Made by a program: the position numbers and the translations under genes
IMG/VR virus record: IMGVR_UViG_2718218126_000004
Strand: one strand, 5' to 3'
Length of the DNA: 45,714 bases
From: a virus
Lineage: Duplodnaviria > Heunggongvirae > Uroviricota > Caudoviricetes
Shown: one piece after another, positions 39,813-40,763 of the stretch
How positions within the stretch are numbered: the first letter of the stretch is position 1
Layout of the letters: each line of letters opens with the position of its first letter
The notes under the pieces: model-generated
What the model was told of the DNA's origin: nothing
What the model saw: only the letters and a program-made list of their open reading frames with translations
Databases searched by the model: none

Positions 39813-39909
39813 ACGCCCTCCAAACTAAGTTTTGTTAGATGCTAATTACAAATCTATCTTTGGTCAATAAAAACTAAGATTACTTAGCAATTAAAGAAAT
39901 GGTGCTCCT
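39813..39909. promoter_or_regulatory. Divergent cro / cI promoter-operator region (OR-like) with CTAAG-N4-sTTAG operator candidates
   Basis: 97-bp AT-rich intergenic with two dyad sites: ctaagttttgttag (39825-39838) and ctaagattacttag (39874-39887); a third similar site, ctaagttaagttag (40602-40615), lies downstream of cI. Confidence 0.6.
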
Positions 39910-40536
39910 ATGGAAACGGTTGGTCAGCGTATAAAAGCTCTGAGAAGAGTTACCAGAACGTCCCAGAAAGAATTGGGTAAATTTTGTGGAGTAAGCGACG
40001 TTGCTGTGGGGTACTGGGAGAAAGACATCAATACCCCTGGCGGGGAGGCACTTTCGAAATTAGCGAAGTTCTTCAATACGTCAATAGATTACATTCTTTA
40101 TGGTGCTGAGTTTGAAGGCAAACTCGTCACAAACATGCGCAGAGTTCCTGTAATATCGTGGGTTCAGGCTGGGCAGTTTACTGAGTGCAGGGCAGCAGAA
40201 GTGTTTAGTGAAGTGGACAAGTGGGTAGATACATCATTAAAGGTTGGTGATAACTCATTTGCATTAGAGGTTAAAGGTGACTCCATGACTAACCCTAATG
40301 GCCTCCCAACAATACCAGAAGGCGCAACAGTGATTGTAGATCCAGATGCAGAACCTCGTCATGGAAAAATAGTCATCGCTCGACTTGATGGAACAAACGA
40401 AGCTACAGTAAAAAAATTAGTCATCGATGGCCCTCAAAAGTTTTTAGTGCCATTAAATCCTCGGTATCCCAACATCCCTATCAATGGTAATTGCCTTATC
40501 ATTGGTGTAGTCAAAGGAGTTCAATACGAACTCTAA
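39910..40536 (+). CDS. cI: CI-type prophage repressor (XRE HTH plus S24 LexA-like autopeptidase domain)
   Basis: 208 aa; N-terminal HTH (QRIKALRRVTRTSQKELGKFCGVSDVAVGYWEKD); Ala-Gly cleavage site in VQAGQF; catalytic Ser (VKGDSMTNP) and Lys (TVKKLV) of S24 peptidases. Confidence 0.9.
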   Translation: METVGQRIKALRRVTRTSQKELGKFCGVSDVAVGYWEKDINTPGGEALSKLAKFFNTSIDYILYGAEFEGKLVTNMRRVPVISWVQAGQFTECRAAEVFSEVDKWVDTSLKVGDNSFALEVKGDSMTNPNGLPTIPEGATVIVDPDAEPRHGKIVIARLDGTNEATVKKLVIDGPQKFLVPLNPRYPNIPINGNCLIIGVVKGVQYEL

Positions 40537-40763
40537 GACCTCTCTTCTCTAACTAAGGCACCGAACTAAGAAAAGTTTGGTGTTTTCTCTTGTCATGATA
40601 ACTAAGTTAAGTTAGATTTTATATCAAAGATAACGAACAGGCAGGACGCCCACGAAGTAGCCGCCTGGGGCATATGAAGTCCAGGATGATTCGTTAGCAA
40701 CAAAAAAGCGCCCTACAGGACGCTTAGCTCTTTAACAATCAGGATATCCACAACAGTAGTAAT

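Follow-up and report, generated by a model that had tools for sequence, protein, structure and literature searches.

The CTAAG and TTAG arms that recur as dyads around the repressor gene of this E. coli prophage very probably mark the sites of its repressor and Cro, in a switch that would follow the plan of phage P22 but with an immunity type of its own. We observed uniqueness of the sequence motif, conservation, homology, geometry, module boundaries, and covariation between operator letters and protein helices. The prophage is lambdoid and integrated beside intD and a tRNA-Arg gene; the window, the whole stretch of DNA that was analysed, comprises 45,714 bp. The dyads are a real but ordinary feature. 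One changed half-site letter, C for T, would make the phage heteroimmune to P22 and lambda. None of this alters how lambdoid regulation is generally understood. Knowing the operators, promoters, and module boundaries would improve the annotation of prophages, the prediction of homo- and hetero-immunity, and the planning of induction or reporter assays. This immunity type is common: of 5426 complete E. coli genomes, 516 carry at least 80% of the region. In the literature that we covered, which was incomplete, we found neither the exact operator sequences nor a prior description of the operator set for mEp460 or P22 C2 immunity, and earlier work is possible.

The pattern CTAAG-N4-[CG]TTAG occurs three times in the window, always inside the immunity region, and never in 100 dinucleotide-preserving shuffles (mean 0.00, maximum 0). 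The initial annotation had proposed searching the whole prophage for this motif, and the search confined it to the very sites located there: CTAAGTTTTGTTAG at 39825-39838 and CTAAGATTACTTAG at 39874-39887, the latter with perfect arms, in the cro/cI intergenic region, and CTAAGTTAAGTTAG at 40602-40615 after cI. The two additional ACTAAG half-sites at 40552 and 40565 were also correctly placed, and five of the seven ACTAAG hexamers in the window fall in 39824-40606. With an independent repeat finder, the same three sites formed the highest-ranking family of direct repeats (17 nt; spacings of 49 and 728 bp). When up to 3 mismatches were allowed across the whole window, 72 matches compared with 110 expected, giving neither enrichment outside the immunity region nor an extra regulon. 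The dyad as first described stands, but the [CG]TTAG arm was too narrow, since the second arm has A and not G as its inner base in 65 of 80 viral contigs with 99–100% identical cI. The operator is better described as an 18-mer, AACTAAG-N4-NTTAGxx. The dyads are confined to this region, persist across genera, and travel with the repressor gene; they can be regarded as probable immunity operators, as had been suggested.

The proteins encoded on both sides of the 97-bp intergenic region, across which cro and cI are divergent, point to P22. The cI repressor gene (39910-40536, plus strand) encodes 208 aa with the Pfam domains HTH_3 and Peptidase_S24 and is 47% identical to P22 C2 over 205 aa, corresponding to the full length (E = 5e-66). 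The N-terminal domain matches PDB entries of P22 C2 with DNA (E = 5e-10) and is P22-like, not lambda-like. The C-terminal S24 domain is homologous to lambda cI according to the PDB match (E = 4e-27), and the motifs VQAGQF, GDSMT, and KKL align to lambda cI. The cro-like gene (39612-39812, minus strand) encodes 66 aa matching Pfam P22_Cro PF14549 with 42.8 bits against a cut-off of 30.2, with 30% identity to P22 Cro. The P22 operators (P22 record NC_002371) are also 18-mers, with an AAG-N4-CTT core. Judged by the repressor, the Cro family, the 18-bp dyad, and the position of OL on pL, the module is of the P22 C2/Cro type. In its general logic, the switch also resembles that of lambda: cI and cro diverge, OR probably has three parts, and OL sits on pL past the end of cI. 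Lambda operators, however, are 17-bp sites without resemblance to CTAAG-N4-CTTAG. The initial annotation had contrasted the motif with the lambda operators and proposed a distinct immunity specificity; the operator letter is indeed the phage's own, but the comparison with lambda overlooked the relationship to the P22 C2/Cro type.

Two strong operators define the OR region: the OR1-like site AACTAAGTTTTGTTAGAT (39823-39840, core 39825-39838), present in all 22 related loci, and the OR3-like site AACTAAGATTACTTAGCA (39872-39889, core 39874-39887), a perfect dyad that, like its flank, does not vary among four phages. Exactly midway between them is a third, degenerate dyad, CAAATctatCTTTG at 39849-39862, the core of the OR2-like 18-mer TACAAATCTATCTTTGGT (39847-39864) with 3 mismatches in the 10 core positions. 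Both dyads first reported between cro and cI are genuine, but the arrangement most likely comprises three operators, including the putative OR2. From the centre of the OR2-like site, the distance is 24 bp to OR1 and 25 bp to OR3, compared with 23 and 25 bp in P22, and the gaps between the sites are 7 and 6 bp instead of 7 and 5 bp, so that the geometry agrees with P22 within 1 bp.

The predicted PR (39839-39867, minus strand) has a -35 element TTGACC (39867-39862), a 17-nt spacer, and a -10 element TAGCAT (39844-39839), with 9 of 12 matches in the promoter scan. The -35 element (GGTCAA on the plus strand) and the -10 region are conserved in the 22 loci, and their placement relative to the operators equals that of the annotated P22 PR. 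The OR1-like site overlaps the last 2 nt of the -10 element and the predicted start site, exactly like P22 OR1, and the OR2-like site overlaps 3 nt of the -35 element, as in P22 OR2. The conservation at OR2 might partly reflect this overlap with GGTCAA.

OR could instead hold only the two strong dyads, 49 bp apart, with possible looping or bending of the DNA and PR alone between them. We consider such an arrangement rather improbable. Only two sites pass a limit of 2 mismatches in the window, and the -35 element of PR accounts for the GGTCAA beside the middle dyad. Nevertheless, the middle dyad occupies the exact position of P22 OR2, and its reverse complement, ACCAAAGATAGATTTGTA, is identical to P22 OR2 at 12 of 18 positions. 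Better dyads are found at this position elsewhere: the arm is a perfect CTTAG in mEp460, and the sites read CTAAT-CTTT-ATTAG in Rahnella and CTAAG-TTAT-GTTGA in Yersinia pekkanenii. Moreover, 49 bp corresponds to about 4.7 helical turns, which would turn the strong sites to almost opposite sides of the helix; steps of 24–25 bp, in contrast, fit the known cooperative pairs of P22. The OR with three sites, two strong and one weak, remains the preferred reading.

The -10 element of PRM is suggested to be TAAGAT (39875-39880, plus strand), contained in the OR3-like site at the equivalent positions of P22 OR3, where the P22 record puts the PRM -10. The assignment follows the P22 annotation, and the putative -35 element (ATCTAT) is poor. 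The cI mRNA starting from this promoter would have a leader of about 24 nt, unlike the nearly leaderless c2 start of P22. Overall, the promoter scan gave 3 promoter-like sites compared with 4.0 expected from shuffles, without excess; hence, our promoter calls depend on position and conservation rather than on the scan statistic.

An early-left promoter had been expected after cI, and the promoter scan placed a sigma-70-like promoter on the third site, directed away from cI. This predicted pL (40590-40618, plus strand) consists of a -35 element TTGTCA, a 17-nt spacer, and a -10 element TAGATT, of which TTG and TAGATT are invariant in 13 loci. In the heteroimmune phage SfV, a promoter of its own occupies the corresponding position. 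The OL1-like operator AACTAAGTTAAGTTAGAT (40600-40617, core 40602-40615) lies in the spacer and the -10 element, beginning 4 nt past the -35 element and sharing its last 5 nt with the first 5 of the -10 element, a layout identical to that of P22 OL1. It is invariant in the window, 689R6, mEp460, and LLS. The half-site at 40565 proved to be the left arm of a weak OL2-like operator, AACTAAGAAAAGTTTGGT (40564-40581, core 40566-40579; 2 mismatches), with its centre 36 bp from OL1 compared with 35 bp in P22. The left-arm CTAA is invariant in 13 loci, including those from Yersinia, Providencia, and Proteus. The OL2-like site overlaps the loop and the 3' stem of a hairpin followed by a U-rich stretch (40555-40586, plus strand; -15.1 kcal/mol), likely the cI terminator. 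Both this overlap and the degenerate state of OR2 and OL2 are differences from P22.

The other half-site, at 40552, is probably no site at all. We rejected it as part of an OL3, since neither mEp460 nor LLS keeps it and only 13 bp separate it from the OL2 centre. An operator 3' of OL1 was also rejected, since the sequence in the window, ATCAAAGATAACGAAC, matches poorly and LLS does not keep it; in Providencia and Proteus, a site is located 22 bp past OL1. The right arm of OL2 (GTTTG) is at the same time the 3' stem of the terminator, and the hairpin alone could explain its conservation.

One might ask whether the elements 3' of cI are mainly the cI terminator and a constitutive promoter, which resemble OR because of the AT-rich composition of promoters or a duplication. 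ACTAAG at 40565 and the GTTTG arm do fall within a conserved hairpin, whose consensus fold over 9 loci has 11 pairs with one compensatory change (CG to UA) and only 2 broken cells, and the right arm of OL1 doubles as the -10 element TAGATT. We regard this explanation as very unlikely because the OL1 18-mer equals OR1 at 16 of 18 positions and stays unchanged even where overall DNA identity falls to 72.7%, belongs to the immunity-specific block that SfV has replaced, and has exactly the position of P22 OL1 relative to the -35 and -10 elements. In addition, the distant relatives from Yersinia, Providencia, and Proteus have a full OL2 dyad without the hairpin. The interpretation of OL1 and OL2 as probable operators is thus favoured.

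The arrangement is conserved far beyond E. coli. The 22 related loci come from more than 12 genera (Enterobacter, Kosakonia, Kluyvera, Serratia, Rahnella, Yersinia, Rouxiella, Providencia, Proteus, and other taxa) with cI 64–90% identical, and all of them keep OR1 and OR3 exactly 49 bp apart. OL1 and OL2 are kept in 17 of the loci; five, from Rouxiella and others, have neither a P22-type Cro nor an OL beside cI. Half-site matrices built from 52 distinct sites, like the direct comparison with the annotated P22 operators, agree with an 18-bp dyad whose outer half-sites are conserved around a 4-bp centre. One half-site letter, C, T, or G, covaries with helix 3 of both the repressor and Cro. CTAAG pairs with the cI helix SDVAVGY and the Cro helix xxEAVYQW (63:1 for own-type against cross-type sites), TTAAG with the C2 helix S(N/H)VAISQ and the Cro helix SDAAVSQW (22:0), and GTA(A/G)G with the cI helix NRVTVTG and the Cro helix KHPSV(S/C)GW (12:0). 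The half-site here is thus A-n-C-T-A-A-G, whereas it is A-n-T-T-A-A-G in P22, and the recognition helices differ likewise, the repressor having SDVAVGY where P22 has SNVAISQ and Cro having TTEAVYQ where P22 has SDAAVSQ. The specificity of P22 itself does not apply to this phage: CTAAG, with C at the third base, is found at 98 of 104 half-site positions, the repressor helix is SDVAVGY, and only 1 P22-type site was found against 63 of its own type.

The covariation also bears on the possibility that the dyads are bound by another regulator, such as the CII-like YmfL, a factor controlled by an antirepressor, or a host protein, and not by cI and Cro. A CP76/CII-like gene does adjoin cro. Yet the half-site letter and helix 3 of cI and Cro vary in step across three groups, and the ymfL-like gene is 89% identical in the heteroimmune SfV, whose repeats differ. 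Activators of the CII type commonly recognize direct repeats at promoters of the PRE type, a habit that does not match 18-bp dyads on PR and pL. We find such a regulator extremely improbable and retain cI and Cro as the presumed ligands.

In P22, a valine packs into a 'valine cleft' of TTAA (PMC2995052), and this valine is retained throughout the three groups. Tentatively, the third base (C, T, or G) of the half-site A-n-N-T-A-A-G might be the immunity determinant of the P22 C2 family, read by parallel changes in helix 3 of the repressor and Cro, and the overlap between OL2 and the cI terminator could link occupancy to termination or read-through into pL. If so, the reading residues would be Ser-Gln in P22, Gly-Tyr in cI and Tyr-Gln in Cro of this phage, and Thr-Gly in cI and Ser/Cys-Gly in Cro of the Morganella/Proteus group. 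The covariation between helix and operator letter provides a compact natural experiment on the change of helix-turn-helix specificity in the well-studied P22 C2 system. Were the proposal true, the natural three-member series would amount to a simple specificity code and a source of orthogonal repressor-operator pairs.

A possible mechanism can be outlined from these elements. The SOS-cleavable C2-type repressor and the P22-type Cro would bind the 18-bp dyads AACTAAG-N4-CTTAGTT. OR1 would cover the end of the -10 element and the start site of PR, the weak OR2 its spacer and -35 element, and OR3 the -10 element of the cI maintenance promoter. The repressor at OR1 and OR2, presumably bound cooperatively, would silence cro and the rightward genes. 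Following the example of P22, it might also stimulate its own promoter, with OR3 serving negative autoregulation and as the Cro target. OL1, located in the spacer and -10 element of pL, would allow the repressor to block RNA polymerase there too. Upon induction, pL, if active as predicted, would transcribe the 64-nt leader, read antisense through a swappable cargo and an STnc100-like RNA, and continue into yfdPQR, xis, and int.

The boundaries of the module were located by comparison with SfV. Homology to SfV stops at 39598 and restarts at 40632, and 39599-40631 has no match in SfV, implying that cI, cro, and the two operator sets are inherited jointly. Within these limits, SfV has an unrelated immunity cassette with different, GTAC-containing repeats and a pL of its own, whereas mEp460, 689R6, and LLS have the same immunity type as the phage studied here. 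SfV, mEp460, and CPS-53-type prophages share the ymfL-like and O-like genes, yfdPQR, and the distal leader, as well as the 64-nt leader of pL and the place where the cargo slot lies. The right end of the immunity module lies about 13 bp past the -10 element of pL, where the 64-nt leader segment (40632-40695, plus strand) begins. This segment is 98.4% identical to SfV and common to heteroimmune prophages, and 1532 of the 5426 complete genomes of E. coli contain the stretch from 40632 on, compared with 516 for the immunity region itself. We rejected the segment as a put- or nut-like element, since its fold is not significantly more stable than that of shuffles (z = -1.29) and a second copy is absent downstream of cro.

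The leader is followed by an exchangeable cargo slot (40696-41349, minus strand) containing a zinc-ribbon/coiled-coil ORF (40764-41279) and a terminator (40725-40706), antisense to pL. The zinc-ribbon gene thus lies between the promoter on the third site and the first early-left gene, as the initial annotation had envisaged. In lambda, rexAB is located between cI and OL, whereas the cargo here comes after pL. The ORF has two CxxC motifs and belongs to PHROG 1244, of unknown function; PADLOC, Pfam, and PHROGs assigned no function, and the promoter scan found no consensus promoter for it on the minus strand. A precedent might be sieB/esc of P22, likewise antisense in the early-left operon and annotated with its own promoter, although no sequence similarity between them was detected. 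In contrast to P22, pL has neither a gene 24/N homologue nor an annotated nutL behind it. It is followed by the shared leader, the antisense cargo, the STnc100-like RNA, and yfdPQR, and neither RefSeq nor the phage records annotate an N-like or gene-24-like ORF between pL and yfdP.

Beyond the cargo, the block from 41350 on is 96–97% conserved in SfV and mEp460. The distal early-left leader in this block contains a likely STnc100 relative (41391-41614, plus strand), though not a curated member of the family: the full-length match to Rfam RF02076 scores 41.1 bits (E = 1.1e-6), short of the gathering score of 47. A yfdP-like gene (41750-42112, plus strand; PHROG 204), identified from the RefSeq annotation of the identical locus, is the first conserved protein gene after pL. 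In other phages with the same cI, the slot holds at least six different cargos, and LLS carries none. The pL of LLS is joined to the distal leader within about 17 nt, suggesting that pL feeds the yfdP operon.

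The predicted switch centres on a gene for a 66-aa protein of the P22_Cro (Pfam) family (39612-39812, minus strand) and the gene for the 208-aa repressor cI, with HTH_3 and Peptidase_S24 domains (39910-40536, plus strand). Beyond cro on the minus strand are a CII/CP76-like gene annotated ymfL (39023-39574) and a replication-initiator-like gene (37737-38678); downstream on the plus strand follow yfdP, yfdQ, yfdR, yfdT, and intD, with an adjoining tRNA-Arg gene. E. coli NCCP 15734 carries a prophage in which the region is 100% identical, 516 of 5426 complete E. coli genomes contain 80% or more of it, and the same immunity type occurs in phages 689R6 and 569R4 (99%), mEp460 (94.6%), and LLS (77%). 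Three dyads of the form CTAAG-N4-STTAG, CTAAGTTTTGTTAG (39825-39838), CTAAGATTACTTAG (39874-39887), and CTAAGTTAAGTTAG (40602-40615), together with two ACTAAG half-sites at 40552 and 40565, have the positions and sequences that the initial annotation had given. A motif search of the 45.7-kb window returned the pattern at these three dyads only, 100 dinucleotide-preserving shuffles of the window contained none, and the dyads were the first family found by a blind repeat search; the motif is therefore real and not a product of chance. Five of the seven ACTAAG hexamers in the window fall within 39824-40606.

The overall design is that of P22, one of the best-studied switches. Over its full length, the window cI shares 47% identity with P22 C2 (E = 5e-66). 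The match of its N-terminal part is to the C2 DNA-binding domain, for which a structure has been solved, and that of its C-terminal part is to lambda cI, where the cleavage and catalytic motifs line up; the window Cro and P22 Cro share 30% identity. According to its record, P22 has 18-bp operators such as ATTTAAGTGTTCTTTAAT (TTAAG-N4-CTTAA), and the window sites read AACTAAG-N4-(C/G)TTAGxx. Length, 4-bp centre, and AAG...CTT core are the same, whereas a T of the P22 operators is replaced by C.

The likeness to P22 extends to the arrangement between cro and cI. On the minus strand, a promoter scan predicted a PR-like element (TTGACC, 39867-39862; 17-nt spacer; TAGCAT, 39844-39839), the -10 of which is overlapped by the predicted operator OR1 (39823-39840, around CTAAGTTTTGTTAG) by 2 nt, exactly as in P22. 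The initial annotation had recognized two dyads here, OR1 and OR3 (around CTAAGATTACTTAG), and both are present, but it had overlooked a further dyad at 39847-39864, which overlaps the -35 by 3 nt, as does OR2 of P22. The reverse complement of this middle dyad, ACCAAAGATAGATTTGTA, shares 12 of 18 positions with P22 OR2 (ACTAAAGATTCCTTTAGT); its gap to OR3 is 7 bp in both phages, and that to OR1 is 6 bp, compared with 5 bp in P22. OR is most likely tripartite, with the weak middle site as the candidate OR2. Read towards cI, positions 4-9 of P22 OR3 are TAAGAT, where the P22 record sets the -10 of the maintenance promoter, and the same hexamer occupies the same place in the window OR3. The 'AT' following CTAAG is invariant in 22 loci, although it lies within the normally free central 4 bp. 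Because of this shared hexamer and the invariant 'AT', we infer by analogy a maintenance promoter, PRM, that might start near 39886 and give cI a leader of about 24 nt; its presumed -35 (ATCTAT) is weak, like that of P22.

An early-left promoter had been expected 3' of cI, and the scan indeed placed a predicted pL there: TTGTCA (40590), a 17-nt spacer, and TAGATT (to 40618), the only consensus-like plus-strand promoter from cI to yfdP. The predicted OL1 (40600-40617, around CTAAGTTAAGTTAG) begins 4 nt past the -35, and its final 5 nt double as the first five of the -10, a layout identical to that of P22 PL/OL1. As for the two extra half-sites, the one at 40565 forms the left arm of an OL2-like site, AACTAAGAAAAGTTTGGT (40564-40581), with two core mismatches and its centre 36 bp from OL1 (35 bp between OL2 and OL1 in P22), whereas the one at 40552 is not conserved. 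This OL2 is a probable operator, though a weak one. The same DNA encodes a hairpin (40555-40586, plus strand, -15.1 kcal/mol) followed by a U-rich stretch, likely the cI terminator. Nine loci retain this hairpin; the substitutions among them include one compensatory CG-to-UA change and several that are compatible with wobble pairing, and the GTTTG arm of the OL2-like site may therefore owe its conservation to the hairpin. The left-arm CTAA, which lies partly in the hairpin loop, does not vary across 13 loci; at the OL2 position, Yersinia proxima, Providencia, and Proteus carry a full dyad and no hairpin. In Yersinia proxima, terminator and OL2 are separate elements, which suggests that the two have merged in the E. 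coli-type module, and repressor occupancy and termination could possibly be coupled through the overlap.

Homology to the heteroimmune phage SfV ends at 39598, within the ymfL-like gene. It is missing over 39599-40631 and returns at 40632 (98% identity over 64 nt). Both operator sets and both promoters are therefore within the swapped block, co-inherited with cI and cro; classically, an immunity region is defined as just such a block. The swapped segment stops about 13 bp past the pL -10. In SfV, the corresponding position is occupied by a terminator, a strong promoter (TTGACA-16-CATAAT), and GTAC-containing repeats of its own that recur in the SfV OR. Of 5426 E. coli genomes, 1532 contain the stretch from 40632, or three times the number with the window's immunity type. 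The 64-nt segment 40632-40695 (plus strand), directly after the pL start, holds a 7-codon mini-ORF (ATGAAGTCCAGGATGATTCGT plus stop) that is also present in SfV, where it ends in another stop codon; the fold of this segment was not significantly stable (z = -1.29).

We gathered relatives by scanning one genome per species, which gave cI proteins 64-90% identical to that of the window from Enterobacter, Kosakonia, Kluyvera, Serratia, Rahnella, Yersinia, Rouxiella, Providencia, and Proteus. The OR1-OR3 distance is exactly 49 bp in all 22 analysed loci, OL1 and OL2 follow cI in 17 of the 22, and in a gap-free alignment the information content peaks at the dyad arms and at the PR -35 and -10. The OR2 dyad is better in Rahnella (CTAATCTTTATTAG) and in Yersinia pekkanenii (CTAAGTTATGTTGA), and mEp460 OR2 has a perfect CTTAG arm. 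Remoter relatives form two further groups, and across the three groups the recognition helices covary with the half-site. Group A, which includes the window, combines cI helix 3 SDVAVGY and Cro xxEAVYQW with A-n-C-T-A-A-G; group B (P22, Xenorhabdus, Photorhabdus) combines C2 helix 3 S(N/H)VAISQ and Cro SDAAVSQW with A-n-T-T-A-A-G; and group C (Morganella, Proteus) combines cI helix 3 NRVTVTG and Cro KHPSV(S/C)GW with A-T-G-T-A-(A/G)-G. Own-type versus cross-type sites numbered 63 versus 1, 22 versus 0, and 12 versus 0, respectively; the sites in the half-site matrices were picked by similarity to their own group's consensus, which is circular, and the cross-type counts are free of that circularity. 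Among the indirect lines of evidence that the dyads are operators of both cI and Cro, the strongest is this parallel change in two proteins that must read the same DNA. In this family, immunity may be determined by one letter of the half-site that is read through matching changes in helix 3, with the valine of the 'valine cleft' (PMC2995052) retained. The literature searched contained no match to these operator sequences and no earlier description of the window's immunity specificity; new specificities are to be expected among lambdoid phages.

Two relatives, a Serratia MAG (L100, 1980-2075) and a gammaproteobacterial MAG (L109, 1904-2000), contain a second pair of perfect CTAAG-N4-CTTAG dyads, likewise 49 bp apart and about 430-560 bp upstream of cI, and their operator region appears to be duplicated. 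Five loci from Serratia aquatilis, Rouxiella spp., and a MAG (L093, L096, L098, L099, and L109) have this cI recognition helix and these OR dyads without a P22-type Cro upstream or an OL/pL directly after cI, where a terminator and then unrelated sequence are found, which indicates that the same repressor-operator pair is wired differently.

If the switch works as in P22 and lambda, dimers of cI bound at OR1 and OR2 would block PR and might activate PRM, OR3 would mediate autorepression and also be a target of Cro, and cI on OL1, with or without OL2, would block pL. RecA-stimulated autocleavage of cI, implied by the aligned AG, Ser, and Lys motifs, would lift repression, after which Cro would bind the same sites.

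The initial annotation had also put the zinc-ribbon gene antisense within the early-left leader, a placement supported by the anatomy, the gene lying between the predicted pL and yfdP. In LLS and two Enterobacter prophages, no more than about 17 nt, and no gene, separate pL from the block that starts at window position 41350. This block continues into yfdP and includes, in the conserved distal part of the early-left leader, an STnc100-like RNA (41391-41614, plus strand; Rfam RF02076, 41.1 bits against a gathering score of 47). The window has the shared 64-nt leader and a 654-bp cargo segment at 40696-41349 interposed between pL and the block. The cargo ORF (40764-41279, minus strand) encodes a coiled-coil region and two CxxC motifs and has a terminator at 40725-40706 (minus strand); the promoter scan found no consensus promoter for it. 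The sieB/esc genes of P22 provide a precedent for an antisense gene inside an early-left operon. In LLS, the STnc100-like RNA comes almost directly after pL, which suggests that it either forms the 5' leader of the pL transcript or arises from that transcript by processing; a 2026 preprint linked STnc100 to prophage PasD sRNAs.

Among viral contigs with the same cI, the cargo slot is bounded by a common terminator and a common right flank and holds at least six different ORFs (about 144-170 aa, minus strand), each with its own terminal inverted repeat, mostly beginning ATCTGG. In the window, the repeat flanking the cargo gene is imperfect, 26 nt long, with arms at 40737-40762 and 41291-41316; the observation extends to locus L001 (5235-5254/5911-5930) and loci L004-L083. 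Homology to 689R6, which has a different cargo, breaks inside both arms. Base pairing between the repeats may join the 5' end of the cargo mRNA to its 3' end, or the repeats may be recombination sites or remnants of a small mobile element. A 13-nt sequence upstream of the minus-strand cargo ORF, TTGTTGTTGGGGA, is repeated exactly and in direct orientation at 41294-41306 and 41327-41339, 33 bp apart, with one copy in the cargo-specific inverted repeat and the other in the flank common to all cargos.
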